From a virus (lineage: Duplodnaviria > Caudoviricetes): a stretch of 59,637 nucleotides of DNA. Made by a program: the position numbers and the translations under genes. Location: positions 1 through 59,637 of IMG/VR virus record IMGVR_UViG_3300048583_000219; one strand, given 5' to 3'. A model generated the notes under the pieces. It did not search any database. It worked only from the letters and a program-made list of their open reading frames with translations, and was not told the DNA's origin. Below, one piece after another: positions 22,032 to 37,260 of the stretch. Positions within the stretch are counted from its first letter, which is position 1; the number at the start of each line of letters is the position of its first letter.

Positions 22032-22035
22032 TCAC

Positions 22036-22836: not shown

Positions 22837-22840
22837 AACC

Positions 22841-23176
22841 ATGTTTAGATTCTTCAAAAAACGGACTGAACCGGATGATATATCCAATGCTCTTACACCG
22901 GAACAACGCGCCGCAGCGGAAATGAAGTTGATAAAACTTCAAGCCGAAGAGCAAGAGCGCTATGCCAGATATAAAGAGGTTAAACAGTTCTATCTGGAAC
23001 AATACCGGACCCTTTCTAAAGAGGATCTTTTGTGGGAATCCGTGCTTCATCTGCAATCTGATGTTTCCATGCTCATCTCATTAAAAATGAGAGGCAATGA
23101 GAACGCTCCTGCCTCGGCTCTTACGGAAGTTCTCGCGTCATATTCCAAAATTCAAAACTTCGACGACGAATCATAA
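22841..23176 (+). CDS. Hypothetical protein
   Basis: 111-aa AT-richer ORF. Confidence 0.5.
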   Translation: MFRFFKKRTEPDDISNALTPEQRAAAEMKLIKLQAEEQERYARYKEVKQFYLEQYRTLSKEDLLWESVLHLQSDVSMLISLKMRGNENAPASALTEVLASYSKIQNFDDES

Positions 23177-23264
23177 CACCTACCCCGCCGAGGCTCCCCA
23201 TACGCCGGTGCGTGGGAATCGAGTAAGGCAAGCCGCCACCGGCACACTCTCCAACCAAAAAGAC

Positions 23265-24242
23265 ATGACAACCGAATTATCCATCAGCACCGAATCGCAA
23301 GCTTTCGAGCTTGTGCAGAGACAGGCAAAACTCCTGTGCTCGTCCACCCTTGTCCCCAAAGAGTTTCAGGGGAACATGGCAAACTGCGCCATCGGCTTGA
23401 ACATCGCAAAGCGCCTTGGCGCGGACCCGTTCATGGTCCTGCAAAACATCGACGTGATTCATGGCAGACCATCATTCCGCGCCACCTTCCTGATTGCCAT
23501 GGTGAACGCCAGCGGTCGTTTCGCTCCGCTGCAATTCCGCATGACCGGCGAGGGCGCAACCCGCGCCTGCGTGGCACACACCACCGTCCTTTCATCGGGT
23601 GAATCTGTGGAAGGACCGGAAATCACGATGGCGATGGCCAAGGCGGAGGGGTGGAGCACGAAGGCTGGCAGCAAGTGGATCACAATGCCGGAGTTGATGC
23701 TACGCTACCGCGCCGCCGCGTTCTTCGCCCGCATCTACGCTCCTGACATCACGCTTGGCATGCAGACCAGTGAGGAACTGGTTGATTTGCCGGAAATGCG
23801 CAACGTGACTCCCGTTGCCCAATCCGCGCCAATGTCGAATCCGTTTTCGGATATTCCCGACTCGCGCACCGCGTCAGAAGTGAACGCTGATGAAGTGAAA
23901 CCGGCGGCCAAGACGAAAGCCAAGGGCAAGCCCGCCCCCACCGCGGAGGAAACGCCCGCCGAACCAGTGGAAGTGATCCCGCCGCGCAAGGAGATGTATC
24001 AGGCACTCAAGGACGCTTGCCGCGATGCCGAGGTTTCCCCGGCCACCGCGGAAGCACGTTTCCGCAAGGCCGGACTGATCCCCGAGGGCAAGACGCTGGC
24101 GGACACGTCCGACGAGCAACTGCACACGATCTACAAGGCCCGCTTGGAAATCCTTCCGCCGAAGGAAAAACCGGCAGAGAAGGAAGACCCGGAAGCCGAC
24201 ACCGGCGCGGACCTGATGGAGGAAGGAGGGGCCGTAGCATGA
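23265..24242 (+). CDS. RecT/Bet-like single-strand annealing protein
   Basis: LVPKEFQGNMANCAIG...VLQNIDVIHGRPS...KWITMPELMLRYRAAAFFAR. Confidence 0.75.
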   Translation: MTTELSISTESQAFELVQRQAKLLCSSTLVPKEFQGNMANCAIGLNIAKRLGADPFMVLQNIDVIHGRPSFRATFLIAMVNASGRFAPLQFRMTGEGATRACVAHTTVLSSGESVEGPEITMAMAKAEGWSTKAGSKWITMPELMLRYRAAAFFARIYAPDITLGMQTSEELVDLPEMRNVTPVAQSAPMSNPFSDIPDSRTASEVNADEVKPAAKTKAKGKPAPTAEETPAEPVEVIPPRKEMYQALKDACRDAEVSPATAEARFRKAGLIPEGKTLADTSDEQLHTIYKARLEILPPKEKPAEKEDPEADTGADLMEEGGAVA

Positions 24243-24448
24243 AACCCCAGCTTTCGAAAAATCCACGGGTGAGACGCATCCAGCTTCGAGCCGCGCGCAA
24301 GCTGGCGTTGATCGAGCGAGGCTCGATGATGGGCAAGCTCCACAAGGCGAAGCTGATGCTGCGCGACAAGGGCAGGAATGGCCGGAGCATGAATGATGCG
24401 ATGGTCGCCGGCCATGGGATTCAACGGAAAGGAGAACCGAACGCATGA
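24239..24448 (+). CDS. Hypothetical protein
   Basis: ATGA-coupled on both sides. Confidence 0.45.
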   Translation: MKPQLSKNPRVRRIQLRAARKLALIERGSMMGKLHKAKLMLRDKGRNGRSMNDAMVAGHGIQRKGEPNA

Positions 24449-24681
24449 GCGCCGATCTATGGATGGGCATTGCCATCGGCTCGCTCGGATCATGGGCGTT
24501 CCTGATCGTCGTGCTGGGCAGCCTGCAAACCGGCAGGAAGAACGCCAAGGCGCACAACGATGAAGCTCATCAACTCTTGAGCGAGCGGAACATGATAGGA
24601 CACGAGCAAGTCCGCTTGCTCGGGGAAATCTCCATGAACCTCGAACTTCTCAACGACACGTTGAAAGGGGGTAATCCATGA
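24445..24681 (+). CDS. Hypothetical membrane protein
   Basis: N-terminal TM segment; ATGA-coupled. Confidence 0.5.
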   Translation: MSADLWMGIAIGSLGSWAFLIVVLGSLQTGRKNAKAHNDEAHQLLSERNMIGHEQVRLLGEISMNLELLNDTLKGGNP

Positions 24682-24881
24682 CTGACGGACAAATAATTGC
24701 CAAGGCGATTGACGGTCTTGCCGCTGTCATAAAGCCCGCCGCCGCACCTGGAACAGACGCAACGGGTGGCCATGTTGATTGCGTGGTCGAGGCGATGATG
24801 GGCCAAACCGCGGGTCTAGTTGCCGTGGCAGACGCTATCAACAACTTAGCCGAAGCCATCAGGGAAAGGAGTGACACATGA
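24678..24881 (+). CDS. Hypothetical protein
   Basis: ATGA-coupled chain. Confidence 0.55.
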   Translation: MTDGQIIAKAIDGLAAVIKPAAAPGTDATGGHVDCVVEAMMGQTAGLVAVADAINNLAEAIRERSDT

Positions 24882-25150
24882 TCCAACAAGACCGCATGAT
24901 TGTTACAATCCAGCAAACCGGCATCTTCCATTATGACGGCCGAAGCGAAAACGGACGATTCAGCGGGACCGGTAAGATGCGCGCCATCTCCATCGATTTC
25001 CCCGAAACCGGAGCCACCGGCCGACTGGCCGAAGGTGCCGACCTCGAAGAGATTTTCGATCACTCCATCTGCCGGATCGAAACTCTCCTGAGAAACCTCA
25101 AGCGAATGAAACAAGAACACCTCGAATACCATGCAAATCCACACATTTGA
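24878..25150 (+). CDS. Hypothetical protein
   Basis: ATGA-coupled; preceded by an AGGAG RBS. Confidence 0.5.
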   Translation: MIQQDRMIVTIQQTGIFHYDGRSENGRFSGTGKMRAISIDFPETGATGRLAEGADLEEIFDHSICRIETLLRNLKRMKQEHLEYHANPHI

Positions 25151-25826
25151 CCAATACACACCCGAATGGTGGGCGGCCCGCAATGGCCGGATCACCGCAT
25201 CCGAAGTCGGTCCCTTCCTGCTCAACACCGGCAAGGTGGCTGAAACCGCCCGTCTGAAACTGATCTGCAAGAAAATCGGTGAACTGGCTGGGGAACTGGA
25301 AGAGAACTTCCCAAACGATGCCATGAAGCGTGGAACGGCCTTGGAACCCATCGCCCGCGAGGAATACGCCCGCCTGTTGGGTGTGGAAGTCGTGGAAGTG
25401 GGATTCATCGCGCATGACAACCTGCCACTTGGTTGCTCGCCGGACGGTTTGATCTATGACGGTCAGACAATCCGGCACGGGGTCGAAATCAAGGGACCGT
25501 CTGCGGCAACGCAAGTGAAGTGGCTTCTGGAAGGTGGACTTCCGGAAGAGCACAAGTTCCAGGTTCACATGTCGATGGGACTCGCCAACGTGGACCGCTG
25601 GGACTTCTTCTCGTTCTGCCCGCGAGTCACGGAATGGATCAAGACGCGCGAGGCGTGGACGGTGGCAGAGTGGGAGCATGGCAATATTCCTCCGCTGCAC
25701 GTCGAGGTCCGGCGATCGACCTTCACCGACCAACTCGAAATGTCCCTGCGCGACCTGTGCAAGCAGTATGCCGAAGTGAAGTCCCGCATGGCGCAACTCT
25801 GGAACGAAAGGAAACAAGCAGCATGA
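25131..25826 (+). CDS. YqaJ/lambda-exonuclease-family recombination nuclease
   Basis: QYTPEWWAARNGRITAS, MKRGTALEP, GCSPDG, VEIK and QV...M motifs. Confidence 0.85.
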   Translation: MQIHTFDQYTPEWWAARNGRITASEVGPFLLNTGKVAETARLKLICKKIGELAGELEENFPNDAMKRGTALEPIAREEYARLLGVEVVEVGFIAHDNLPLGCSPDGLIYDGQTIRHGVEIKGPSAATQVKWLLEGGLPEEHKFQVHMSMGLANVDRWDFFSFCPRVTEWIKTREAWTVAEWEHGNIPPLHVEVRRSTFTDQLEMSLRDLCKQYAEVKSRMAQLWNERKQAA

Positions 25827-25981
25827 CACCCGAAATCGAACAACAGTTAAAGTCCCTCGAAAGCCGCCACGCTCGTCACCAGCGCATGCTCGAAGATCAC
25901 CGCGAGGCCAGGCACCAACGACGCGAGAAACACAAGCGCCGCTGGCACCGCATGAAATGGCCGCCCATCGCTCTCATCTGA
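25823..25981 (+). CDS. Small basic hypothetical protein
   Basis: ATGA-coupled start. Confidence 0.4.
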   Translation: MTPEIEQQLKSLESRHARHQRMLEDHREARHQRREKHKRRWHRMKWPPIALI

Positions 25982-26017
25982 ACCGAAACCAACAACCAAT
26001 AGAAAACACCGACTACC

Positions 26018-26554
26018 ATGGAGTTACGATTCCTATCCATAGGCCGCAAGGCCATCAACTTCGGCATCGTCCTCAATCCGGACAATGACGATGACACCGT
26101 GGCGACCGAAGAGCGCCGAATCACCGCCCACGAGGCTCCCTTGCCGGAACTTCAAACGGCGTTCGCCAAACTCGCGCCTGTGATCTGCGAGATCATCGAG
26201 ACGGAACCAGGCTGGGCGGATGGCATGAACATCACCCGGATCGCCATCAGCTACACCAAGGCGGGCACCCGGTCCGTGCGATTCAAATGCACGCGCCAAC
26301 TCGAATGCCGGAAAGACTTCCTGTGGAAGTTCGACACGCCCATGGTACAGGTGGACAAGCCTGCCGATGGTGAGTCCGGCCAGATCGACGTTGCGGACAA
26401 GAAGCATCTGAAATTGATCTTCGACGCGATCAAGCAAGCCGAGCGCTACGCGAACGGCGAGCGGAGTCAGCAACTTCTCAACTTCGACGAGGCCAAGGCC
26501 GCCTTGCAGGCGACCGCGGACAAGGGAGCATCCCTGTTCGGAACCGATGGCTGA
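26018..26554 (+). CDS. Hypothetical protein
   Basis: 178-aa ORF with good codon usage. Confidence 0.6.
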   Translation: MELRFLSIGRKAINFGIVLNPDNDDDTVATEERRITAHEAPLPELQTAFAKLAPVICEIIETEPGWADGMNITRIAISYTKAGTRSVRFKCTRQLECRKDFLWKFDTPMVQVDKPADGESGQIDVADKKHLKLIFDAIKQAERYANGERSQQLLNFDEAKAALQATADKGASLFGTDG

Positions 26555-26572
26555 ACCTCTTTGCCGCCCGCC

Positions 26573-27118
26573 ATGGTCCCGCCATCCCTGAAAGGAAAAG
26601 AACTCGAAACGCTGATCCTCGACGCTGCGAAGCGCGAGGAAGCCAGCGGAACGATGATCCTGTTTCGCTACGGCGTGCAGGGAACCACGTTCGGAGGGAA
26701 AACGATCCTTCTCAGTTCGCTTCCAGACTTTGGGGGTGTGCTGGCCGGCGGGCGGCAATTCAACATCGAGGCGAAGTGCGCGGCAGGCGCTTCGTTTCCG
26801 CTGGCATCCGACCACTTCCGCGACCGGCAGTATTCCCACATGGCGCGATGCGCCCGCATGGGCGCGTTGTCCTTCCTGATGATCCACTTTGCGGAACGTC
26901 GCCTGATGAGCAAGACGGACCCCGGCATGACGGTGGCGGTGCCGGTGAATGAGAAGATGAGCTTCTGGCGCTTCTACGAGGCCGGAGATGCCCGCTCGCT
27001 GTCCCGTGAGGAGGCTCTGTCACTTGGCTGCATCGTCCCCTGGGTGGTGCCTCCACGCTGCCGCAAGCCCCTGCCGGACCTGCTCTCATTTCTGGAACGA
27101 TACAACGCCCCGTTCTGA
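26573..27118 (+). CDS. RecU-like Holliday junction resolvase
   Basis: GKELE...SLPDFGGVLAGGRQFNIEAK...Q matches the RecU-type PD-(D/E)xK pattern. Confidence 0.7.
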   Translation: MVPPSLKGKELETLILDAAKREEASGTMILFRYGVQGTTFGGKTILLSSLPDFGGVLAGGRQFNIEAKCAAGASFPLASDHFRDRQYSHMARCARMGALSFLMIHFAERRLMSKTDPGMTVAVPVNEKMSFWRFYEAGDARSLSREEALSLGCIVPWVVPPRCRKPLPDLLSFLERYNAPF

Positions 27119-27125
27119 TTCCTCC

Positions 27126-27164
27126 GCTGCGCCCGTTATCGAGACCCCATTTCCATGACACTAT
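27126..27164 (+). promoter_or_regulatory. Phage-specific promoter, copy 4 (replication leader)
   Basis: GCTGCGCCCGTT, 21 nt, CACTAT. Confidence 0.65.
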
Positions 27165-27170
27165 CCCACC

Positions 27171-27307
27171 AGTTCCGACCACGCCGCTTGAGACCGGCCG
27201 GAATCGATTACATGAAGATTGAACCGAAACACCCTTCCGATAGCCTGCCACGCCGCGTTTATCATGTCCGCGGGTCTCAACGTGGCGGGCTGTCGGAGGG
27301 GTTTTTT
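27171..27307 (+). promoter_or_regulatory. Structured leader: intrinsic terminator with an alternative antiterminator
   Basis: Stem 27232-27252 pairs with 27281-27300 and is followed by a T6 run. Upstream CCACG-ccgc-TTGAGACC (27179-27195) is complementary to GGTCTCAACGTGG (27273-27285). Confidence 0.6.
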
Positions 27308-27337
27308 GCGCCCAAATCACACTCCGAATTTCCAACT

Positions 27338-28078
27338 ATGAAATCACCCGCTTTCCAGTTTTACGCCGCCGATTTCCTGATCGGTGTGATGGGCATGTCT
27401 GACGAGGAAATCGGCATCTACATCAAGATGCTGGCGCTCCAATGGGAACGCGGATCGCTGCCAAATGATCGGAAAACGATCAAAAAACTCATCAATTCCC
27501 GAAAGATTCCGAGCGAAATGGTGATGCACAAGTTTGCGATTTGCGATGATGGTTTTTTGAGAAATACGCGCCTCGAAAAAGAGCGCGAAAAACAGACAAG
27601 TTTCAGAGAATCAAGGGCTAAGAACGCACAAAAGCGGTGGAAAAAGGAAAATGCCGACGATGCACTAGCATCAACGGTGCATCCTTCTAGCACATGCGAA
27701 ACCGATGCTCTTCTATCTTCATCTTCATCTTCTCTTAGAGATATAGATAAAACCCGCGTGGCTGATGGTTCGTGGGCAGACGATGAACCGGATACTCCCT
27801 CAAAGCCAAACGGGAGTCGAAGACCCACCTTGGCAGAAGCATTGAGCTACGGAGCCACCATTGGAGTCCTGCCCGAGACCGTCGAGACATGGTTTGCCAA
27901 CCGGACCCGTGACGAGTGGATGATTCACGGCACCAACGGACACGCCCGCCCGGTGCGCAACTGGCAGCATGACCTTGCGGCGGCGAAGTCATGGCGAAGC
28001 AACCAATCGCCTGCCAACGGGCAAAGCGGATCGTCTCCGAAGCGCCGCGAACTGACCAGCAACGACGTGACCCTTTGA
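27338..28078 (+). CDS. Replication initiator, YdaU/DUF1376-like
   Basis: MKSPAFQFYAADFL...MSDEEIGIYIKML...LRNTRLEKE; directly upstream of dnaB. Confidence 0.75.
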   Translation: MKSPAFQFYAADFLIGVMGMSDEEIGIYIKMLALQWERGSLPNDRKTIKKLINSRKIPSEMVMHKFAICDDGFLRNTRLEKEREKQTSFRESRAKNAQKRWKKENADDALASTVHPSSTCETDALLSSSSSSLRDIDKTRVADGSWADDEPDTPSKPNGSRRPTLAEALSYGATIGVLPETVETWFANRTRDEWMIHGTNGHARPVRNWQHDLAAAKSWRSNQSPANGQSGSSPKRRELTSNDVTL

Positions 28079-28082
28079 CCCT

Positions 28083-29339
28083 ATGACCGATACCGTCCAA
28101 GCTCTGCCGCATGCACCGATGGCCGAAAAAGCCATCCTGTCCCTGATGATGGATCAACCCGAGACCTTCATGCGCCGCGCACTCGGTGAAGGGTTGCGGG
28201 CCGAAATGTTCCACCTTCACGGGCACATTTTCACGGCGCTTGTGGCGCATCACAAGGAACACGGCGGATTCGACCTGACCGCCTTCATTCAAGGGATGAG
28301 CCTTGCCGGCGTGCTCGACCGGATAGGCGGAGCCTCCGTAGTATCGGAAATCTACACCTATGCGGTGGGCAATGGCCAAGGCTGGACGATCTATTGCCAG
28401 CAACTCCGCGAGACCTATGCGATGCGCCTGGCGATTCTGCGCGCCCAAAAACTGACTGAGGCCGAGGACAGCGACGAGGCGATCCGCGAGACGGAAAGCG
28501 CCTTGGCTGCGCTCAGGGATGCCGTGAGAGGGCCGCGGCGGAGTGTGGGAAGCAAGGCGGCGACCGAAGAGTTTCTGGCCCGCACACAGGCCGCGATGGA
28601 TGCCGGCCCCATCCCCGGCGCATCGACCGGGATACAACCGATTGATTTCGTTTCCGGAGGGATGAAACCGGGAGAGTTTTGGGTGATTGGCGGCAAGCCA
28701 TCCCGCGGCAAGTCGGTCCTGATGCTACAAATCGCCTGCGCCTTCTTGCATCGAGCGGAACCGGTGGCGGTTTTCAGCCTGGAAATGATGCGCCATGAAA
28801 TCATTGGCCGGATGGTTTCCACGATGGGCAAGGTGGATTATTCGAAGATCACGCAGCCGAAGAAGCTGGAAGCGAATCTGGACCTGATCCATATCCGCAA
28901 CGCTGTGGGGCAGATTGCGGCCGCGCCGCTCTGGATCGACGACAGCGCCAACCAGACGACCGACAGCATCCTCAACGAGGCTGTCAGGCTGCGCGACGCG
29001 CACGGCTCGCTTTCTCTCGTCGTGGTCGATTACTTGCAACTTATCCGCGGCAACCGGCAGCGTGGAGAATCCCGCGAGGAGGAAGTAGCGCGCGTGTCGG
29101 GCGGATTGAAGCAACTCGCCAAGGAACTGCAATGCCCGGTCATCTCCGCCACCCAACTCAACGAGGCCGGACAATCGCGCGAGTCCCGCGCTATCGAACA
29201 GGATGCGGACGCGGCGCTCTGGATCGTCGAGGACGGCATCAAGGTGATGAAGCTCCGCAACGGAGTGAGAAACGACCTGCTACCGCTCTACCTCGAAGGC
29301 AGTTACCAACGATTTACCCATACCCAACCCACAAAATGA
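28083..29339 (+). CDS. dnaB: Replicative DNA helicase (DnaB family)
   Basis: LPHAPMAEKAIL N-terminus, Walker A GKPSRGKS, FSLEM, VVDYLQL and SRAIEQDAD. Confidence 0.92.
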   Translation: MTDTVQALPHAPMAEKAILSLMMDQPETFMRRALGEGLRAEMFHLHGHIFTALVAHHKEHGGFDLTAFIQGMSLAGVLDRIGGASVVSEIYTYAVGNGQGWTIYCQQLRETYAMRLAILRAQKLTEAEDSDEAIRETESALAALRDAVRGPRRSVGSKAATEEFLARTQAAMDAGPIPGASTGIQPIDFVSGGMKPGEFWVIGGKPSRGKSVLMLQIACAFLHRAEPVAVFSLEMMRHEIIGRMVSTMGKVDYSKITQPKKLEANLDLIHIRNAVGQIAAAPLWIDDSANQTTDSILNEAVRLRDAHGSLSLVVVDYLQLIRGNRQRGESREEEVARVSGGLKQLAKELQCPVISATQLNEAGQSRESRAIEQDADAALWIVEDGIKVMKLRNGVRNDLLPLYLEGSYQRFTHTQPTK

Positions 29340-29340
29340 C

Positions 29341-29604
29341 ATGAATCCGGAACTCTACGATCTTCTAACCAAACTATCCGCTATTCAAAAATCCAGGCAA
29401 TACAACTGGAAAAACGGCGATCCAGCCAGCTTGGATCTTGAGGCTGCGCACCAGTTGGAACTTACCGGACTGCGCAAGCGACTCGAAGCATTCTCCCCGA
29501 CCGGACGGGTGGCCGGAACCGAGGAAACCCCCACCGATGGAGCATCAAGCATTAACCGGTGTGGGAGTGCCCCATCGGTGGGATCAACCCTTTGCATGGC
29601 ATGA
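29341..29604 (+). CDS. Hypothetical protein
   Basis: Follows dnaB; ATGA-coupled to the next gene. Confidence 0.45.
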   Translation: MNPELYDLLTKLSAIQKSRQYNWKNGDPASLDLEAAHQLELTGLRKRLEAFSPTGRVAGTEETPTDGASSINRCGSAPSVGSTLCMA

Positions 29605-30041
29605 AACAGACGGTGACATATTTGAGGGAGGGCAGAAAGCTCCGCGCGACCGGCGTGATGGTGGCAAACGCTCCGAAGCAAGGTTTGGTGAAAGTGAAAC
29701 CCCACCGCGAAGATTGGGGGCATGTATGGATCACGCGCGAGGAAATCGCCGCAGGCCAAGGCAAGCCACTGGTTCAATCGCGCAAGCCCGCAAGCGAAAA
29801 CCCAAAGAAAACGCGCAAGCCGCGCGCCAAGAAACAGCCCCCGAAGCCACGCTGGCAACAGTTGATCCATGAGGTGAGAACGCTCGAAATCGAGCACGTT
29901 CCGGATGGGTGGCCGTGCGTGCGGATGCGGACACTCACCGAGCTTGCCAACGAACTCGAAGCGGCGCGGGCCAAACTGGCTGAGTTTCTTCCAGTCAACG
30001 CAGAGCTCTGGCACCGCCGGAGACGGCACACAAATCTATGA
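29601..30041 (+). CDS. Hypothetical protein bordering the cassette array; its C-terminus is encoded by attC1
   Basis: Reads through AGTCAAC as ...LPVN and stops at the ATGA inside attC1. Confidence 0.6.
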   Translation: MKQTVTYLREGRKLRATGVMVANAPKQGLVKVKPHREDWGHVWITREEIAAGQGKPLVQSRKPASENPKKTRKPRAKKQPPKPRWQQLIHEVRTLEIEHVPDGWPCVRMRTLTELANELEAARAKLAEFLPVNAELWHRRRRHTNL

Positions 30042-30122
30042 AACAAGAACCAAACACCGAGGCGGCGGAAACCGTCCAAACCACGAGCGTCCCGGCGGTT
30101 GTCCAGGAGCGACTTGTTGTGC
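29993..30122 (-). other. attC1 (distal end of the array)
   Basis: Plus strand AGTCAAC-gcaga-GCTCTGGCACCGCCGG...CCGGCGGTTGTCCAGGAGC-gactt-GTTGTGC. Confidence 0.8.
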
Positions 30123-30466
30123 CTCTTCCGTGTCCGTTTTGCGGCTATGAAGGAGTGCGAGTGCTGGAGTGCATCCGACTGAGCGTGTCTTGCGACCTGT
30201 GCCGCGGAATCGGGCCTGCTGCCGCCACCAGCCCCGAAGCTATCGAAAAATGGAACCAACGCCCCGCCGAAACGCTCATGTCTATCGACCGCACGCAAAT
30301 GCAGTCCGCGCTTCGAAAACTCGCAACGGCGGAATCGACCGGTGACTGGGGGAAAGATCTTGGGTGCATGCGAGAAATCGCACGCTTGGGGCTTTCTTGG
30401 CACAACGCAATAGGTATGGCAGCGGGAGCCGATGGATCGCCATCGTCAGCCAATGAAAAGCCTTAA
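30038..30466 (+). CDS. Cassette 1: Lar-family restriction-alleviation-like Zn-finger protein
   Basis: LPCPFCG...VSCDLCRGIGP...EAIEKWNQR. Starts in attC1 and stops in attC2. Confidence 0.65.
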   Translation: MKQEPNTEAAETVQTTSVPAVVQERLVVPLPCPFCGYEGVRVLECIRLSVSCDLCRGIGPAAATSPEAIEKWNQRPAETLMSIDRTQMQSALRKLATAESTGDWGKDLGCMREIARLGLSWHNAIGMAAGADGSPSSANEKP

Positions 30467-30494
30467 CCCGATTGCCATCACTCCCTTGTTATGC
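30400..30494 (-). other. attC2
   Basis: GCACAAC...GTTATGC with ATGGCAGCGGG/CCCGATTGCCAT arms. GCACAAC complements the GTTGTGC of attC1. Confidence 0.85.
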
Positions 30495-30517
30495 CTCTTC
30501 CGAATTACCAAACGACT

Positions 30518-30706
30518 ATGAAACCAACGCCAATGACTGCCGAAAGATACCTCGCAATTATCAATGATCTAATCCCGAAAGGCTGGATGCCGATTGGCCA
30601 GTTCGGGTCGATGACGTTCCGCCGAAACGGGAAAAACTACGACCTGTCCGCTGCGGATCTAGGTCAACTCGACCGCATCGAACGCGAGGGATTATTTTTG
30701 GCATAA
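30518..30706 (+). CDS. Cassette 2: small hypothetical protein
   Basis: MKPTPMTAERY...; its stop TAA lies within the GCATAAC core. Confidence 0.55.
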   Translation: MKPTPMTAERYLAIINDLIPKGWMPIGQFGSMTFRRNGKNYDLSAADLGQLDRIEREGLFLA

Positions 30707-30802
30707 CGCTGGGGGTATGGCGCGGGAACTAGCCGCGCAGGACTCAGAATCACCAAACCGCGACAACGGCTAGTTCCCGTTGCCATGACTCCCTTGTTAG
30801 CC
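30701..30802 (-). other. attC3
   Basis: GCATAAC...GGGAACTAGCCG/CGGCTAGTTCCC...GTTAGCC. Confidence 0.88.
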
Positions 30803-30813
30803 TTCTTTGAATT

Positions 30814-31101
30814 ATGACCGACGCACAAATAGCCTTAAAATTCTCGGACGATTACCCCTACGAAATCGACGAAGACACCAACCCTGGAGCGGACCTAAAG
30901 CCCGCCGACTGGGCACATCGTGCCGCCCGTGGAATAATGGCCGACATGAACGACAGGCGCGGGATCAAATGGGAAATCCAAAAGGTCGATATAGACACCC
31001 GGAAGGACATTGTGGCCGCGCTGGCTGCGATTATCCGCTTAGCGCATTCTGAGGCTAACGCAAAAAGTCCATCCGTGGACGAGAAAGGAACGAAACCATG
31101 A
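30814..31101 (+). CDS. Cassette 3: hypothetical phage protein
   Basis: DWAHRAARGIMADMNDRRGIKWE; tail and stop lie in attC4. Confidence 0.65.
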   Translation: MTDAQIALKFSDDYPYEIDEDTNPGADLKPADWAHRAARGIMADMNDRRGIKWEIQKVDIDTRKDIVAALAAIIRLAHSEANAKSPSVDEKGTKP

Positions 31102-31207
31102 AAGGCTGCATACGGTGTCACGGCCCGACCGACCACAAAGGCGACTGCGAGCGGTGCGACCGCGAAAGAACAGCGTCAGGGCCATCGGATGCGACGGCTT
31201 GTTCTCC
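31053..31207 (-). other. attC4 (long; its loop holds an RBS and start codon)
   Basis: GGCTAAC...GTCCATCCGTGG/CCAtCGGATGcGAC...GTTCTCC, with two extrahelical bases. Confidence 0.75.
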
Positions 31208-31403
31208 GTCTTATTCCGCTAGATTTCGACTCGGTCAAGACGCGGTGGAAATCCGCGTGCCGACTGGCGACATGGATAATCCGCACTGCTGGCACGGCCT
31301 CGATCTGCATACCGCAAAACAACTGCGGGACGATCTGTGCAAAGCCATCGACACCCTCGAAGCATTCCAAAATCTGCGCAAAGAGAATCCGGAGAACGCA
31401 TAA
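31098..31403 (+). CDS. Cassette 4: hypothetical protein with a CxxC...CxxC N-terminus encoded in the attC4 loop
   Basis: AAAGGA RBS and ATG 31098 inside attC4; ends ...ENA* in attC5. Confidence 0.55.
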   Translation: MKGCIRCHGPTDHKGDCERCDRERTASGPSDATACSPSYSARFRLGQDAVEIRVPTGDMDNPHCWHGLDLHTAKQLRDDLCKAIDTLEAFQNLRKENPENA

Positions 31404-31478
31404 GCTCATGGACGCCGACCTATTCACTCCGATTCAAGATGGACGCTCCTCGGCGTTCCATGCAGCGCCTGGTTCGGC
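31391..31478 (-). other. attC5
   Basis: GGAGAAC...GCTCATGGACGCCGA/TCGGCGtTCCATGcAGC...GTTCGGC. Confidence 0.85.
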
Positions 31479-32037
31479 GTTGGTGTGCGACGACACTGCT
31501 CCCGGCAAGCCCTATCTGGTGCCAATGACTCTGCGCAAAGCCAATGATTTCGTGGCCGCCCATCATCGCCACAACGGACGCACCGCCCGCAACGGCGGCA
31601 AGTGGTCCGCTGGCGTGGCCGTGGATGGAAAGCTCGTAGGCGTGGCTATCGTCGGAAACCCGCTGTCCGCGACACTGATGGACGGATGGACGGCCGAAGT
31701 GTTGCGCGTCTGCACCATCGAAGACGCACCGAAGGGAACCTGCTCGATGCTGTATCAAGCCTGCTGGCGGGCGTGGCGGGCAATGGGCGGTCGCCGCCTC
31801 ATCACCTACACGCTGCAATCCGAATCCGGCGCAAGCCTGCGAGGTGCCGATTGGCGAGTCGTCGGGCAGACAAAGCCAGTGAAGGACGGATGGCGGAAAA
31901 ACGACCATCTCAACGGAACCCGCACGCACTCGCCCGTCATGCTGGAGGTGAAGAACCGCTGGCAGCAAGATGACGGCTCTTATTCTTCGCCGAACGCAGA
32001 GGTGAGGCACGGCGCGAAGGACCCCGACCTCGACTAG
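31408..32037 (+). CDS. Cassette 5: XF1762/Mom-like GNAT-fold protein (possible DNA modification)
   Basis: ANDFVAAHHRH...GVAIVGNP...AEVLRVC...CSMLY...RAMGGRRLITYTLQSESGASLRGADW. Confidence 0.65.
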   Translation: MDADLFTPIQDGRSSAFHAAPGSALVCDDTAPGKPYLVPMTLRKANDFVAAHHRHNGRTARNGGKWSAGVAVDGKLVGVAIVGNPLSATLMDGWTAEVLRVCTIEDAPKGTCSMLYQACWRAWRAMGGRRLITYTLQSESGASLRGADWRVVGQTKPVKDGWRKNDHLNGTRTHSPVMLEVKNRWQQDDGSYSSPNAEVRHGAKDPDLD

Positions 32038-32074
32038 AAACTTTCCCGCCGTTGCCTCGACCGACTTGTTAGCC
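31989..32074 (-). other. attC6
   Basis: GCCGAAC...GGTGAGGCACGG/CCGtTGCCTCgACC...GTTAGCC, with canonical extrahelical T and G on the plus strand. Confidence 0.9.
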
Positions 32075-32110
32075 GTTCGGGGGACGCGGAAACACCAAAC
32101 AAATACGCAT

Positions 32111-32401
32111 ATGACACCAACCGAAGCCGCTACGGCGGACACAAAACAATGGAGAAAAGACCTCGACGGCGTGCTGCAAAGCATCAAGCGGGGGAGTGAC
32201 ACGAAGCGCGAAGTCCTCACCAGTGAGGATCACCCACGGGCAAGCCGTGAACGCTCGCTGGCCGTGACGAAACTCCAAGAAGCAATCATGTGGCTTGGAA
32301 TGGACCTCAAGGACATCGGGGAAACGCCGAACCCATACCCGCACAGCTACGACCCCGCGTCTCCGGTGATTGAACCGACGGCGGACGGATTGAAGCTGTA
32401 A
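32111..32401 (+). CDS. Cassette 6: Acb2/Tad1-like helical hairpin protein (candidate signalling-nucleotide sponge)
   Basis: SRERSLAVTKLQEAIMWL resembles the Acb2/Tad1-family RExSLAxTKLEEAxxW motif. Confidence 0.6.
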   Translation: MTPTEAATADTKQWRKDLDGVLQSIKRGSDTKREVLTSEDHPRASRERSLAVTKLQEAIMWLGMDLKDIGETPNPYPHSYDPASPVIEPTADGLKL

Positions 32402-32411
32402 ACACCAACCA

Positions 32412-32442
32412 AGCCGGAGAGTGGGTCTTCCATTCTCCGGCT
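32412..32442 (+). other. RNA hairpin after the cassette 6 gene, overlapping the attC7 core
   Basis: AGCCGGAGAGTGG-GTCTT-CCATTCTCCGGCT (13-bp stem, one G-U pair). Confidence 0.55.
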
Positions 32443-32525
32443 AACGCAATAGGTGAGGCACGGCGAGATAAGACGCCGCCTCACGAATAAACTTTCCCGC
32501 CGTTGCCTCGACCGTCTTGTTAGCC
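32439..32525 (-). other. attC7
   Basis: GGCTAAC...GGTGAGGCACGGCG/CGCCGtTGCCTCgACC...GTTAGCC. Confidence 0.9.
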
Positions 32526-32564
32526 GTTCGGGGGACGCGGAAACCACAACAAACCAGAACCAAA

Positions 32565-32771
32565 ATGCAACCATACCTAGACAAAGTATTCGATGAGTTC
32601 CGTGACTTGGAAAACAAGCTGAACGAACTCAGGGACTTCATGGAAAATCCCGAGCAGTGGAGAACAGTGAGTCCTGACAACCAAGAGCGGATGGAAATGC
32701 AGGCGAACGTCATGACGCTGTATCTGCACATCCTGAACAACCGCATCAAAACTTACAGCCCGACCGCATGA
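32565..32771 (+). CDS. Cassette 7 gene A: crAss001_48-like coiled-coil protein
   Basis: LENKLNELRDF...QANVMTLYLHILNNRI pattern. Confidence 0.55.
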   Translation: MQPYLDKVFDEFRDLENKLNELRDFMENPEQWRTVSPDNQERMEMQANVMTLYLHILNNRIKTYSPTA

Positions 32772-32831
32772 AATAATACCGGACCATGTTGGTGACGCCA
32801 CCGATATGGTCCGGGCAACCGCAAAACACCC

Positions 32832-33428
32832 ATGGAAAAAGAAATACAGACTCACGAAAAGAAAACCGATATTCCCGAAGACATGTGGGAAGCCGTCGGC
32901 GCATTACGCGGCGCACTCGCGGACAATCCCTGCGTCATTCTGGACGAGGCCGACCCGGAAGACGGCGACCGGCACTACTTCTTCTCAGACCCCGACTTGT
33001 ATGGGGCCATTCAGGACGTTGTAGAGAACCTGCCGGGGAAAACATTCCAAGGACACAGCTACGTGTCACTCGCGTATGCGCTGATGAAGCATGGAGTAGT
33101 ATGCGAAGCGGCAATCGAAGATTCAACGGCATTCGACAACGGGAAAACGCTGACCGGAATCTGCCGTGCATTCTGCGACCTCCAAGAAGACTCACCCGCA
33201 AAAAACATAATCACCGATAAAGAACGCATGGACTTCCTCGAATCGCTCGGGGATGCGCCTACTGACACCGACCTCCATATTCACCCGGAATGTGTCGCGT
33301 CCTTCAATATCTACCTTCGCGGGAACCGTCACAAGCCGGGCTTGGAGAATAACATTGCAGCACGGCAACACCACGGAATCACCTTCCGGGCGATGATCGA
33401 CGATGCAATTTTTTCGGCTAACCACTGA
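32832..33428 (+). CDS. Cassette 7 gene B: hypothetical protein; stop supplied by attI
   Basis: Ends ...FSANH* through GGCTAAC-CAC-TGA; contains a DKERMDFLE motif. Confidence 0.6.
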   Translation: MEKEIQTHEKKTDIPEDMWEAVGALRGALADNPCVILDEADPEDGDRHYFFSDPDLYGAIQDVVENLPGKTFQGHSYVSLAYALMKHGVVCEAAIEDSTAFDNGKTLTGICRAFCDLQEDSPAKNIITDKERMDFLESLGDAPTDTDLHIHPECVASFNIYLRGNRHKPGLENNIAARQHHGITFRAMIDDAIFSANH

Positions 33429-33450
33429 TTCAACCGCGTGCGCGGTTTTA
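33416..33450 (-). other. attI-like site
   Basis: Minus strand ...GGTTGAATCAGTG-GTTAGCC is a core with no attC hairpin, just upstream of intI. A second GTTRRRY (GTTGAAT) and the palindrome AACCGCG-TG-CGCGGTT lie nearby. Confidence 0.7.
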
Positions 33451-33468
33451 TTCCAAACCCTCAAATTT

Positions 33469-34443
33469 ATGACCAGAACCGAAACCCTCGCCAAATTCGA
33501 TATGATCGCTCGCCGCCGGATTGCTCTGACAACAGAGCGCTCTTATCGGTCATGGATCGTGAAATATCTGTCATTCCTCGGGACGGAAAAGGCCAAGGCA
33601 GCGACGACTTCCGAAGCGAAGATGGAAGTTTTCCTAAGCTCCATGGCTCACGAGGACTATTCGAGTGTCAGCCAGAATCAGGCGTTCAACGCACTTCTGT
33701 TCCTTTACCGCCATGTTCTCAAAATCGAAATTGGAGACGTTTCGGCTTTGCGCTGTCGCAAGAAGCAGAAGGAACGCTATATCCCGACACAGGCGGAAAT
33801 CTCCGCAATGTTCGAGCACCTGAAAAACACTCCGACTTACAACGTCCGCTTGCTGGCGGCTTTGCTCTATGCGTGCGGCTTGCGGGTGCAATCCGGATGC
33901 GAACTTCGCATCAAGGATTTCGACTTGGAACGGATGGTTCTGACAATCCATGAAGACAAGGGGGACAAGGACCGCCAAGTTTCGATTCCGGAATTATTGT
34001 TGCCAGCGCTTCGCCGCCAGATTTCCCGCGCATCGGCCCTTGCCGAAATCGACATTGCAGCGCTGCAACCGGTGCAACTTCCTGGACGTCTCGACCGGAA
34101 ATACCCAGCCAAACAGTTCGAAGTCGGTTGGCACTTCCTGTTTCCGTCTCCTGCACCGTGCGCTCATCCAAGAACCAAGAAAATGGTCCGCTGGTGCATG
34201 GGACCAGACGTGATTCAGCGGGCAATCAAGGATGCGGCAAAACGTGCGGGCATTCCCGGCAAGGTGACTCCTCATTGCCTGCGCCATTCGTTTTGCAGCG
34301 ATCTGTTGGATTCAGGCCACAACCCGCGCCGGGTGCAAGAGGCTATGGGACACGCGGACATTAGGACCACGATGGGATACGCCCGGAAAGACTGCCTGAG
34401 CCTGCCAAGCCCGATTGAAACCATGAAACTTCGTTCCGCATGA
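33469..34443 (+). CDS. intI: Integron integrase
   Basis: SQNQAFNALLFLYRHVL, LLYACGLR, KGDKDR, the IntI-specific insertion VQLPGRLDRKYP...WHFLFPS...HPRT, VTPHCLRHSF, MGHADIRTTMGY and a C-terminal SP. Confidence 0.92.
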   Translation: MTRTETLAKFDMIARRRIALTTERSYRSWIVKYLSFLGTEKAKAATTSEAKMEVFLSSMAHEDYSSVSQNQAFNALLFLYRHVLKIEIGDVSALRCRKKQKERYIPTQAEISAMFEHLKNTPTYNVRLLAALLYACGLRVQSGCELRIKDFDLERMVLTIHEDKGDKDRQVSIPELLLPALRRQISRASALAEIDIAALQPVQLPGRLDRKYPAKQFEVGWHFLFPSPAPCAHPRTKKMVRWCMGPDVIQRAIKDAAKRAGIPGKVTPHCLRHSFCSDLLDSGHNPRRVQEAMGHADIRTTMGYARKDCLSLPSPIETMKLRSA

Positions 34444-34784
34444 AGGCAGAGCGCACCAACGACAAGTGGACCGAATACGAAGCTCCGTGGGTTTCGGAAG
34501 TGGAGGGCGAGCCGTTCACCTACCGGGTGCAGTCGCGGTCTGAATCAGGCATGGCGCACACGGTTGATCTGACACAGCGCGGCGGGCATGGTGCCTGCAC
34601 ATGCACCTTCTTTCAAATTCGCGCCAATTCGAACTTCCGCCGGCATGGTCAACACATTCCATACGCCCCGAAGCGGGAAGGGGTGAGTGAGTGCATACAC
34701 ATCAGGTCCGCCCTCGATTTCTTCCATGTCAACGTCACTATCCCCATGCTCGCCTCATTCAAAAACGGAATCTCGAAACCATGA
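34440..34784 (+). CDS. SWIM-type zinc-finger protein
   Basis: YRVQSRS...HTVDL...CTCTFF...ECIHI; ATGA-coupled to intI. Confidence 0.55.
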   Translation: MKAERTNDKWTEYEAPWVSEVEGEPFTYRVQSRSESGMAHTVDLTQRGGHGACTCTFFQIRANSNFRRHGQHIPYAPKREGVSECIHIRSALDFFHVNVTIPMLASFKNGISKP

Positions 34785-34954
34785 TTTCATTCCCCTACGT
34801 CTGGACATGGAAAGCCCGACTGCCGGAGCGCCGCGGCCAAATGCTGCGCGTGATATGCCGCGGTAAACTCAACTCCTGCATGGTGGAGTTTCAAGACGGA
34901 TGCCGATACATCACATCACGGAACGCCCTTAGAAAATCTAAACCAACACCCTGA
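34781..34954 (+). CDS. Small hypothetical protein
   Basis: MISFPYVWTW...RGKLNSCMVEFQDG...TSRNALRK; ATGA start. Confidence 0.55.
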   Translation: MISFPYVWTWKARLPERRGQMLRVICRGKLNSCMVEFQDGCRYITSRNALRKSKPTP

Positions 34955-34957
34955 ATC

Positions 34958-35770
34958 ATGGCTGAAACAACTGAAATCTCGTGGTGCGATGCCACAATCA
35001 ATCTCTGGTGGGGATGTTCCAAAGTCTCCCCAGGCTGCGCCAACTGCTATGCCGACAGCTTCTCGAAGCGATGGGGCAAGGACATTTGGGGCAAAGGCAA
35101 GCCGCGTGAGGATCACCGGGCCGGCGCGATCAAGACGGCGATGAAGCTGAATCGCCAAGCGGAGAAGGAAGCAAAGCGCCTGCGCGTGTTCTCAGCCTCT
35201 ATGTCGGACTGGCTGGATGACGAGGTGCCGAAAGAGTGGCAAAACGACCTGCTGCGACTTATCGAAGCCACGCCTCATCTTGATTGGCTTCTCCTTACCA
35301 AACGTCCGGAAAATTGGGAGGGCGTGATGACAAACGCCCTGCTCGATGGTGTGGATATGGTGCATGAGTGGGTCAACGGCAGGCCGCCTGCAAACGTCTG
35401 GATCGGCACCACCGTCGAGGACCAGGCGCGCGCCGACGAACGGATTCCGCTGCTGTTGGACATCCCGGCCATGGTGCGCTTCCTCTCGTGCGAACCTCTT
35501 TTGGAAGCCGTGGACGTGGCATGCCATTTCCGCTGCCACTTCACCGCAAACGGCAGATGGCCCGGACTGAACTGGATCATCTGCGGCGGCGAGTCCGGTC
35601 CCGGCTTCCGACCATTCAATCCCGATTGGGCGAGAAGCCTGCGCGACCAGTGTAAGGCCGCCGGAGTGGCGTTCCACATGAAGCAGATGGGCGGAATGCG
35701 CCCAAACACGATGCCGCCAATACCGGACGACCTGATGATCCGTGAATATCCAACCAGCACAATCCCATGA
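34958..35770 (+). CDS. Phage Gp37/Gp68 (DUF5131) radical-SAM-like protein
   Basis: GCSKVSPGCANCYA, SMSDW, LLTKRPE, FLSCEPLL and WIICGGESG. Confidence 0.88.
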   Translation: MAETTEISWCDATINLWWGCSKVSPGCANCYADSFSKRWGKDIWGKGKPREDHRAGAIKTAMKLNRQAEKEAKRLRVFSASMSDWLDDEVPKEWQNDLLRLIEATPHLDWLLLTKRPENWEGVMTNALLDGVDMVHEWVNGRPPANVWIGTTVEDQARADERIPLLLDIPAMVRFLSCEPLLEAVDVACHFRCHFTANGRWPGLNWIICGGESGPGFRPFNPDWARSLRDQCKAAGVAFHMKQMGGMRPNTMPPIPDDLMIREYPTSTIP

Positions 35771-36048
35771 CCGCACTCCAAGCACTCACCCACGCGCGCA
35801 AGCACGGCATCACGCCGGCAGCGCTGCACCCACTCCTGGCACTCGTCGAGGACAGCCCGCTTGGGCCGTCCGAACTCAGCCGGCGGATCGGAAGCAGTCG
35901 CGCCAACATGACAGGACTGATCGACCGTCTTGTGCGTGATGGATGGATCGAAAGAACAGAGAACAAGCAGGACCGTCGCCAATTCGTTTTGATCCCAACG
36001 GAGCGCGCCTTCGAGATCCTGACACCCGCCATCGAGGAAGACTTATGA
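35767..36048 (+). CDS. MarR-family winged-helix regulator
   Basis: SELSRRIGSSRANMTGLIDRLVRDGWIER...DRR. Confidence 0.8.
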   Translation: MTALQALTHARKHGITPAALHPLLALVEDSPLGPSELSRRIGSSRANMTGLIDRLVRDGWIERTENKQDRRQFVLIPTERAFEILTPAIEEDL

Positions 36049-36257
36049 AAGCCCCTATCCGAAACTGCGAGAAGTGCATCCACTTCGTGCAACTGCCCGA
36101 GAAGAAACGCGCCCACTGCGCACGCGGGAAGAAGCTCCACTTCATTTTCCCGAAGCTGTCGGGGTTACAGCATCCCGACACATGGGGATACCGGACAAGC
36201 TGCAACCTGTTCGTCAAAGCTTCTCAGCCCAAGCCTGCACCAACTCACCCGGCGTGA
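36045..36257 (+). CDS. Small Cys-rich protein
   Basis: RNCEKCIHF...C...C; ATGA-coupled. Confidence 0.45.
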   Translation: MKAPIRNCEKCIHFVQLPEKKRAHCARGKKLHFIFPKLSGLQHPDTWGYRTSCNLFVKASQPKPAPTHPA

Positions 36258-36423
36258 TTCTCCGCGCTTCCGCGGTGCCCTCGACCTTGGCCTTGGCCTC
36301 ATCGGAGACACGGACAGACAGCAAGGCACGGCGCGAGCCTTCGATAGGTTTGCGGCCGGATCCGGGCCGCTTGCCTCCGCGGCCTGGCCCCTTTTTCTTG
36401 GCGATCTTTTTCTTGGCACTCAT
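36214..36423 (-). CDS. Small DNA-binding protein (GGxRxGxGRK plus RHH-like)
   Basis: RGGKRPGSGRKP...LSVRVSDE. Confidence 0.6.
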   Translation of the reverse strand: MSAKKKIAKKKGPGRGGKRPGSGRKPIEGSRRALLSVRVSDEAKAKVEGTAEARRITPGELVQAWAEKL

Positions 36424-36602
36424 GGTTGATCTTGATCCGGGTTATGGCGGAGTCTCGTCGGATGCGGCGCACTACCTTCCATCGAGTCGATCGCATCGGT
36501 GAGTTCTCGCATCTGGAAGACGAGTTCACGGATCGTCTTTTCCATCAGGGTGATTTTGGCGGTTTGCGCTTCGAGCAGGCGCTTCAATTTCTTGCGTTTC
36601 AT
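36420..36602 (-). CDS. Hypothetical protein
   Basis: MKRKKLKRLL...; ATGA-coupled chain. Confidence 0.45.
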   Translation of the reverse strand: MKRKKLKRLLEAQTAKITLMEKTIRELVFQMRELTDAIDSMEGSAPHPTRLRHNPDQDQP

Positions 36603-36904
36603 GCTGCTTTGAAGGGGATGATGTTGGTGGGGTTGGCGATTGGTTCCGAAACCTCGGGAATCGCGCGTTCCTTGGCGCGGAAGCTCGGTGCCATCGAGTA
36701 GCGTCCATAGGGATAGAAATACTCGGCACCGGTGTAGGAGTCGATCAGCAGACCGCGGCGGACGATCCCACGAGACCCGCCCAAGTCCACGAGAACGGAC
36801 TTGGCGGTTCTGGAAATGATGCGGGCGGTGTAAATGCAATCATGGTCGCACAGCGAGCGGGTGGTCAGGACATCTTCCGGGGCGAATCTGGCGTTGGTTT
36901 TCAT
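36599..36904 (-). CDS. Hypothetical protein
   Basis: TRSLCDHDCIY...RTAKSV pattern of small phage early proteins. Confidence 0.6.
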   Translation of the reverse strand: MKTNARFAPEDVLTTRSLCDHDCIYTARIISRTAKSVLVDLGGSRGIVRRGLLIDSYTGAEYFYPYGRYSMAPSFRAKERAIPEVSEPIANPTNIIPFKAA

Positions 36905-37260
36905 GGATTAAGAAAGTGATGGGCTTGGTTAGCCACAATGCGGCATATTTCGACGTGTTTGCTGAGTTTGGCATCGCCGGTCGGGGTAAGGTGGTGGCGG
37001 AGTGATTCCAACCAATCGATTGACCCGTTCAGGACTTCTTCAAGGCTTTCAACCAATGCAGCCGGCTCAGGGTTAAGCCAGTGGGTTGTATCTCCGATTC
37101 TCCATCCAATCAGAATCGATTCCTGCCCCCAAAGAGCGACGATGCGCTGTCCGGATTCATCCTCCCATGCGTGGGTTCCGTGGTGTTTTGGAAGGCGTTT
37201 CAGGGCCGATGGCTTTCCGGAAAAACGGGCATAAGCTTGTTCTGCGATTTTAGTTGTCAT
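36901..37260 (-). CDS. Hypothetical protein
   Basis: Member of the tightly packed leftward operon. Confidence 0.5.
   Translation of the reverse strand: MTTKIAEQAYARFSGKPSALKRLPKHHGTHAWEDESGQRIVALWGQESILIGWRIGDTTHWLNPEPAALVESLEEVLNGSIDWLESLRHHLTPTGDAKLSKHVEICRIVANQAHHFLNP

Follow-up and report, generated by a model that had tools for sequence, protein, structure and literature searches.

A phage integron array whose cassette genes are reversed relative to their own attC sites

The gene cassettes of class 1 integrons carry open reading frames (ORFs) that read away from the attachment site attI and are driven by the promoter Pc, and passages of Nivina et al. (2016; PMC5027507) present strand selection at the attC sites as serving to place promoterless genes correctly behind Pc. 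What, then, is to be made of an array whose genes all point towards attI? The question is raised by IMG/VR record IMGVR_UViG_3300048583_000219, a phage genome (Duplodnaviria; Caudoviricetes) of 59,637 nucleotides (nt) that is called the window here. Between a dnaB-type helicase gene and a gene for an integron-type integrase (intI) are attC hairpins, six of them clear and a seventh weak (31053-31207, 22.2 bits), and then a predicted attI; all eight ORFs at 30119-33428 are on the plus strand, directed towards attI and intI and co-directional with dnaB. The matter turns on which strand of the attC sites is recombined. The evidence supports the plus strand as the attC bottom strand, and the cassette ORFs are confirmed to be reversed relative to their own attC sites when compared with canonical cassettes.

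The recombined strand of the attC sites and the strand of the genes

On the plus strand, each hairpin starts in a box ending AAC and ends in a box beginning GTT. The sites are listed with their scores under two covariance models, R1 and R2, described below.

29994-30122, plus: attC1, leftmost (oldest), three bulged bases on the 3′ arm; R1 11.5 bits, R2 39.2 bits
30400-30494, plus: attC2, weaker, C at position 16; R1 7.5 bits, R2 19.4 bits
30701-30802, plus: attC3, G16 and T23; R1 21.3 bits, R2 22.6 bits; bulges (16,0,1), (22,0,1)
31053-31207, plus: possible attC4, weak, long variable loop, C16; R2 22.2 bits (E 0.06), unreported by R1 at E values up to 10
31391-31478, plus: attC5, C16 and T23; R1 17.5 bits, R2 41.7 bits; bulges (16,0,1), (22,0,1)
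31989-32074, plus: attC6, G16 and T23; R1 23.8 bits, R2 54.6 bits
32439-32525, plus: attC7, G16 and T23; R1 32.8 bits, R2 52.5 bits

When the sites are folded with DNA parameters, single-base bulges are confined to the 3′ arm of the plus strand (attC1, attC3, attC5, attC6 and attC7) and fall at the 16th and 22nd positions of the walk along the helix, the same positions as in the aadA1 attC site on the intI1-coding strand of plasmid R100; on three other plasmids, the sites of aac(6′)-Ib, catB3, aadA5 and dfrA17 likewise have 3′-arm bulges at similar positions. In attC3, attC6 and attC7, numbering from the 3′ end gives G16 and T23 with a stem of 6 base pairs (bp) between them. In the relevant passages of PMC5027507, the recombined bottom strand is the one with the AAC triplet in the 5′ box and the extrahelical bases on the opposite arm, its G16 and T23/24 being separated by a 6-bp stem. 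The three sites match this published rule, which makes the plus strand the bottom strand. The first-pass annotation of this locus had reached the same assignment from an extra T and G on the plus strand, and the motif is indeed present at 32050-32063 and 32501-32514. All of the features by which an attC site is recognized were found: an imperfect hairpin, AAC and GTT boxes, an unpaired spacer, bulges at 16 and 23-24, and a variable loop.

Scoring by covariance models gives the same strand. R1 was built from eight class 1 sites only, taken on the intI1-coding strand, with a partial structure drawn by hand, and was run over 28500-35500 with filters off. Its best site, 32439-32525, scores 32.8 bits on plus and 4.5 bits on minus, the latter being a mirror image and the best minus-strand score at a real site; the outcome that the first-pass annotation had named as fatal to its reading, attC models scoring best with plus as the top strand, did not occur. 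The reciprocal model R2, built from 25 viral sites, gives seven matches in the whole 59.6-kb window, all of them on plus and within 29994-32525, and it finds class 1 sites absent from its training on the intI1-coding strand, with aadA1 as the top match at 58 bits. Pairing holds in 92.6% of the cells of the 25-site alignment, and of its 14 pairs 11 vary on both sides, values that none of 500 shuffles reach; slid controls of the alignment are 23-44% paired. Two other alignments were dropped, one of 20 family sites made with MAFFT (too irregular for a model) and a later one that contained a minus-strand mirror match. Rfam, searched at gathering thresholds, returned nothing for the window; this is uninformative, as Rfam is not known to include an attC family.

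A repeat search (blastn) showed attC7 and attC6 to be 85% identical, and the likeness includes about 30 nt past the GTT box. These stretches (32075-32105 and 32526-32556) are alike though the ORFs that follow them are unrelated, and they may represent a shared leader at the cassette 5′ end. A 16-bp imperfect hairpin at 32779-32814, between the two ORFs of the last cassette, was considered as a further attC and rejected, being recognized by neither R1 nor R2.

The genes carried between these sites are the following.

30119-30466, plus: cassette 1, Lar-like restriction alleviation (TIGR03655 E 1.7e-9, PF14354 E 3e-8, phrog_599 E 3.4e-8); GTG start inside the attC1 GTT box, last 20 codons in attC2
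30491-30706, plus: cassette 2, 71 amino acids (aa), codon usage best in the plus frame; ATG inside the GTT box, stop overlapping the next AAC
30814-31101, plus: cassette 3, 95 aa, codon usage best in the plus frame; no family match in Pfam and PHROGs searches
31098-31403, plus: 101 aa, codon usage only marginally best in the plus frame; start uncertain if attC4 is real
31519-32037, plus: XF1762 family, Mom-like DNA modification (NF045478 E 6.1e-46, phrog_1384 E 1.7e-31); last 13 codons in attC6
32111-32401, plus: Acb2/Tad1 hairpin domain (PF24729 29.2 bits, cut-off 27; PDB 8kbb, Thoeris anti-defense 1, E 0.001)
32565-32771, plus: crAss001_48-related protein (PF21825 E 4.7e-14, phrog_774 E 7.3e-14)
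32832-33428, plus: last cassette ORF, 198 aa, codon usage best in the plus frame; final two codons and TGA stop inside attI

Judged by codon usage, with 16 long genes of the window as the training set, the plus ORF frame is the best of six for all eight ORFs, for one of them only marginally, and four of the eight have family matches. The first-pass annotation was right to place all eight on plus, pointing towards attI and intI. Its figure of eight cassettes has to be lowered: eight ORFs there are, and with six clear attC sites and one weak one they are carried by six to seven cassettes. The product of 32111-32401 is a candidate sponge for bacterial immune signal molecules, and the cargo as a whole appears to be enriched in counter-defence functions, judging from the Lar, Mom-like and Tad1/Acb2-like genes here and from DNA methyltransferases in relatives.

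Since the family matches are on plus and plus is the bottom strand, the ORFs are reversed with respect to canonical cassettes; none of the eight is a top-strand ORF reading away from attI, all being on the bottom strand and directed towards it. Once integrated, a unit opens with the attC hairpin, continues through a short leader into the ORF, and is closed by the next AA|C. An inversion of the whole array cannot produce this reversal, because ORF and attC would turn together, and with array inversion excluded the reversal must be a property of each cassette. It follows that the cassettes were either generated or selected in the reverse sense, which bears on the question of how cassettes originate.

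The gene block around the array and how the cassettes may be read

The window is a complete phage genome: the virus record is rated 100% complete, with direct terminal repeats, and bases 1-127 recur exactly at 59511-59637. The array lies in a rightward, plus-strand block that comprises a YqaJ exonuclease, a RecU-like protein, DUF1376, the DnaB helicase, the array itself (from dnaB to the integron-type integrase), intI and DUF5131. Its bearings are given by these features.

1893-4064: portal
10284-11873: capsid protein
18005-19117, minus: phage-type tyrosine integrase, separate from IntI (PF00589 E 3e-8)
28083-29339, plus: dnaB-type replicative helicase (TIGR00665 E 2.3e-62, TIGR03600 E 5.1e-56)
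29559-30041, plus: last backbone ORF ahead of the array, from the ORF list; its frame is the best codon-usage frame
36362-36387, plus: strongest plus-strand terminator-like hairpin, with a stem of 9 pairs (8 G-C) followed by a T run; a consensus match only
39136-41405: small and putative large terminase subunits

The tail of the last backbone ORF enters the 5′ arm of attC1, and the ORF gave no family match in Pfam and PHROGs searches. Every gene from about 20488 to about 36400 is on plus with operon-like spacing, and cassettes and intI would therefore most simply be read from upstream phage promoters. On this proposal, which is drawn from gene order, transcription would most likely run through the cassettes and into intI, a Pc promoter directed outwards from the platform would be unlikely, and the hairpin at 36362-36387 may mark the end of the block. 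New cassettes would enter at attI, directly before intI, and under read-through the newest cassette would be the promoter-distal one, a reversal of the usual expression gradient. If the array is indeed transcribed from the phage operon, the recombinogenic strand would be the non-template strand, which may fold more freely. The block can be called an early operon on the strength of its replication and recombination genes only, because Pfam gave no helix-turn-helix match among the genes around the presumed lysogeny switch. The minus-strand recombinase at 18005-19117, presumably the lysogeny integrase and distinct from IntI, adjoins a divergent region at about 19100-20500.

A different account of expression would keep the cassettes co-oriented with the operon and give them promoters of their own in the attC-leader region, or would have the attC hairpins terminate transcription, such that there would be neither a single early transcript nor a reversed gradient. 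We consider this unlikely, though some observations favour it: the leader of about 30 nt conserved past the GTT box in attC6 and attC7 could house such promoters, two sigma-70-like matches (30814 and 30910) fall inside the array, and passages of PMC8876359 allow that attC hairpins may be weak terminators. A consensus scan of 19000-37000 found promoter-like matches at the level of chance, six sigma-70-like sites against 6.5 expected in shuffled sequence, a count to be read with the reservation that Verrucomicrobial promoters may differ; it also gave no strong terminator-like site on plus within the array, in a terminator count (30 sites against 22.5 +/- 5.0 expected) that is itself uninformative. 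The operon-like gene spacing and the two cassette start codons that fall inside a GTT box likewise speak for reading the cassettes from upstream.

Two other observations concern the wider genome. The DUF5131 gene (phage Gp37/Gp68-type) lies just downstream of intI in the window, at 34958-35770; in a Haloferula prophage (locus L006, 5640-6653) such a gene closely precedes the array on the intI strand, immediately left of both attC matches and outside them. One reading frame extends without interruption from 41498 across the 127-nt terminal repeat to 1643, about 6551 codons by frame arithmetic, with a ddrB-like ParB domain near residues 1800-1939 of the part that was scanned; its product looks like a giant polyvalent-type phage protein.

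attI, the crossover point and cassette mobility

If plus is the bottom strand, cassettes are predicted to be cut at AA|C on plus, and the platform should show as much. Its two components are these.

33420-33456, plus: predicted attI, with the AAC crossover triplet at 33420-33422, then a conserved element
33469-34443, plus: intI, integron-type tyrosine recombinase, 324 aa (TIGR02249, 260 bits)

The best family of the integrase is TIGR02249 ("integron integrase"), with Xer families at or below 138 bits. It aligns over its full length with IntI1 of plasmid R100 at 36% identity, the IntI-specific segment (columns 215-260) without a gap, and the columns taken as catalytic are invariant among the aligned integrases; presumably these are the Arg, Lys, His, Arg, His and Tyr of the active site. 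It is thus an IntI-type tyrosine recombinase that possesses the IntI-specific segment. The gene begins, as the first-pass annotation had it, 40 nt after the last cassette stop (from 33426-33428 to the ATG at 33469), and the AAC triplet of attI is 45 nt before that ATG.

Conservation upstream of intI begins exactly at this AAC in five distinct sequences (the window and the related loci L001/L002, L004, L005 and L006), which to the left of it are unrelated, and a related AAC..TGATT motif stands upstream of intI in eight distant loci. A common sequence from AAC onwards reads as the signature of an attI flanked by differing cassettes, and the predicted attI adjoins intI and shares the crossover triplet. 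With attI directly 5′ of intI and plus as the bottom strand, the array runs leftwards from attI in canonical geometry, as had been proposed. The attI stretch also supplies the stop of the last cassette ORF (33420-33428), its AAC being read as a codon, an arrangement repeated at a second attI in L004; one further frame, in phase with intI, stays open as far as the intI ATG. Inside attI, at 33433-33448 and at the corresponding place in L001, L004, L005 and L006, a 6-bp stem is kept while its 4-nt loop differs in every lineage, and a T-rich run follows. This stem-loop, at which the consensus scan made no terminator call, might serve in integrase binding or as a weak attenuator ahead of intI.

The clearest trace of movement is in L004, where a 290-nt unit (5809-6098), an attC followed by an ORF, is repeated at 13027-13316 with 100% identity and with GAAC on both sides. 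At its second location the unit adjoins, at AAC, another attI, identical over 38 nt, with no intI behind it. Because the boundary falls inside the ORF tail, the ORF ends in different codons at the two places. The orphan attI (13027-13350 taken with the unit) is 4.3 kb downstream of intI and is followed by an unrelated ORF, which gives this phage two integration points.

Four other metagenome runs hold contigs with pieces of the window's array that end at the predicted boundaries; only long contig pieces, and one joint with letters between its two sides, were taken as evidence. In run X1, 30400-30709 occurs with 0 mismatches inside a 750-nt contig that is unlike the window beyond it, and 32326-32445 occurs with 0 mismatches followed by 121 unlike letters; run X7 holds the piece 30393-30708. 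Pieces in X2 (32799-33422) and X4 (33078-33422) both stop on the C of the attI triplet, and in the X2 contig, after 33422 and five other letters, an attC1-like site stands in place of attI. None of the pieces from the four runs breaks at the GTT box. The cassettes thus behave as discrete mobile units bounded by crossover points. Contigs of X2 and X4 also seem to skip 300-303 nt within 32100-32404, which holds the Tad1/Acb2-like ORF, with attC and leader kept; the joints have sides of 39-43 nt and a likeness of 88 and may be repeat artefacts. Skip and go-back joints with short sides and this likeness were not used as evidence, as attC repeats can create them.

These boundaries bear directly on the idea that this integrase clade recombines the other strand, in which case the cassettes would be canonical, an ORF with its attC downstream, cut at G|TT on plus, with attI at the left end of the array. 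ORF tails do enter the following attC, as in canonical cassettes, and this favours the idea. The leftmost element of the array, however, is a complete hairpin and no attI; conservation beside intI begins at AAC; the duplicated unit of L004 has AAC as its boundary at either end and is joined to attI there; contigs of other samples break at AAC, and the lack of any break at a GTT box contradicts cutting on the other strand; and the unpaired bases fit the bottom-strand rule. We regard this reading as highly improbable.

The same material makes it very hard to believe that the array is an inactive relic, its sites decayed or captured once and its orientation devoid of functional meaning. The weakness of attC2 and attC4 and the inter-ORF hairpin at 32779-32814, which is not attC-like, might be taken as decay. 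Against this, intI has an intact frame, with 78-86% identity to its closest relatives, L004 carries another, 100% identical copy of a cassette next to an additional attI, the four metagenome runs show cassettes in differing contexts, and homologous cassettes are found across phages whose integrases are only 32-43% identical to the IntI of the window.

Taken together, we think it probable that this is a genuine and recently active integron in a temperate phage of a Verrucomicrobiota-type host, with a canonical platform, each ORF on the bottom strand, and expression likely by read-through. Several observations pull the other way. R1 rests on eight sites, and the alignment behind R2 and its covariation were fitted to R1, which favours structure. 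Of the sites, attC2 (7.5 and 19.4 bits) and attC4 (reported by R2 only) are weak. IntI falls 5 bits short of the curated TIGR02249 cut-off (265), and the Tad1/Acb2 assignment depends on a stretch of 24-28 residues. Several ORF tails cross AA|C, by 20 codons for Lar and 13 for the Mom-like gene, so that a moved cassette would change its C-terminus; this is unusual, yet it is what is seen in L004. On the side of expression, no RNA runs holding 28000-34500 of the window were found, and the chance-level count of promoter-like sites belongs here as well.

Relatives and known integrons

Searching with a profile of the five close integrases yields 55 viral loci, the majority with full-length integrases of 32-43% identity, and related prophage integrons are carried by the cultured Luteolibacter marinus NBU1238 and Haloferula luteola YC6886 (L005 and L006). 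On 53 sources, R1 gives 38 matches outside the five class 1 control loci, 36 of them on the intI strand; the two on the other strand are weaker mirror images of plus matches. R2, run on 45 viral or prophage sources and five controls, gives 164 matches at E values up to 1, of which 163 are on the intI strand; 39 of the 45 sources have at least one match, and nearly all matches are upstream of intI. The arrangement of the sites is therefore clade-wide.

The strand of the genes in these relatives was addressed by a translated comparison of arrays in which the best frame was taken for each homologous block, blocks above 90% identity were removed and pairs were counted from both sides. It gives 105 blocks on plus and 10 on minus, and plus dominates in each of the 21 loci with any block. 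Examples between attC matches are L064 3483-4046 against L038 5115-5678 (63% over 188 aa) and L032 4784-5479 against L031 1133-1828 (65% over 232 aa). The window itself has no block in this comparison, and its ORF evidence is that of the family matches. Identified cargo on the intI strand includes C-5 and N-6 DNA methyltransferases in L002, a polymerase-beta-like nucleotidyltransferase in L004 and a GNAT protein in L065, the latter being the only Pfam match (on plus) among 10 long ORFs of distant loci, with none for five minus-strand candidates. Codon-usage strand calls for distant loci, made upstream of intI and between attC sites, were rejected as unreliable, because window cassettes with family matches were miscalled and the calls conflict with cross-locus protein conservation.

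That the real genes might be on minus, behind a Pc-like promoter near attI or intI, with the plus ORFs spurious, is scarcely credible: high G+C does give long antisense ORFs, the longest being 31420-32220 (minus, 266 aa), but that ORF has no family match, the matches to Lar, XF1762/Mom-like, Acb2/Tad1 and crAss001_48 families are on plus only, codon usage favours the plus frames of all eight ORFs, and protein conservation across loci is on plus.

Whether the relatives form a distinct class is a separate matter. It is possible, though we advance it only tentatively and think it somewhat doubtful, that at least 39 viral or prophage loci represent a phage-native class of integron with reverse-polarity cassettes, in which the coding (non-template) strand of the early operon doubles as the bottom strand that recombines, early transcription or replication exposes the attC hairpins, the reshuffling of a bank of counter-defence genes is coupled to infection or induction, and intI is the last gene of the transcript. 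If this were true, excision and reshuffling of counter-defence genes would be tied to each infection or induction.

How does the array compare with integrons already described? Like class 1 integrons (In2 of Tn21 on R100 and the arrays of other plasmids), it has an IntI-type recombinase, an attI directly 5′ of intI, AAC on the 5′ arm, bulges at 16 and 23 on the intI-coding strand, and an AA|C crossover. Unlike them, its ORFs are on the intI strand and point towards attI, whereas all annotated cassette genes of our class 1 controls are on the strand opposite intI1 and read away from attI; attI and intI are separated by only 45 nt, the array resides on a phage, and its cargo consists of something other than antibiotic resistance. 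The platform is arranged as in class 1, with attC bottom strands and the AA|C of attI on the intI-coding strand, and it is the cassettes that are built in the opposite sense, each ORF on the bottom strand.

The Treponema type of "inverted integrase" integron shares with the array the common direction of transcription of intI and cassette genes. In that type, according to passages of PMC3607928, intI is transcribed towards attI and the cassettes are downstream of intI; here attI is upstream of intI, the attC sites are oriented normally relative to intI, their bottom strand being the intI-coding strand, and the reversal concerns the ORFs within the cassettes, so the array does not belong to the Treponema type. 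Long one-way phage operons may be poor hosts for a divergent module, and reversed cassettes, as in the present clade, would be one solution, a Treponema-type layout another. In Virus Rctr41k (KX853513; our locus L075), four weak attC-like matches (17.6 to 9.5 bits) are on minus at 6641-8813, in gaps between plus genes and downstream of an integrase-like gene, and this virus may use a Treponema-type layout on a phage. Nor is the array a CALIN (an attC cluster without a neighbouring intI), as an intact intI begins 40 nt after the last cassette stop.

Integron components on phage genomes have been surveyed by Qi et al. (2023; PMC9892861), who report three complete integrons from 10,705 phage genomes, together with one cassette-less integrase and 17 attC clusters without integrase; the cases counted as complete comprise a class 1 integron carried by a P1 phage-plasmid, fragments of chromosomal integrons in Vibrio prophages, and a Shewanella prophage. 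The present array resembles these cases in its phage setting; the clade to which it belongs has an integrase lineage of its own and cassettes that are reversed. When GenBank phage records were searched by tblastn, the only matches were the records of Qi et al. and three others, all less than 60% identical to the IntI of the window. Our search of full-text literature found no reversed-cassette arrays or counter-defence phage integrons, with subscription journals and supplements (such as those of Qi 2023 and Cury 2016) outside the search.

In this array, the recombination machinery and its strand choice are kept while coding polarity is flipped, which means that recombination polarity is separable from expression polarity. 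There is a functional likeness to the sedentary chromosomal integrons described in bioRxiv 10.1101/2024.07.02.601686 as banks of anti-phage defence genes. Like those, the array would be a store of small genes of the immunity conflict; here, the store is on the phage, and its cargo resembles counter-defence (Lar, Mom-like, Tad1/Acb2-like, methyltransferases). The array suggests that phages maintain a repertoire of exchangeable counter-defence genes, mirroring the bacterial integrons in which defence genes are stored.

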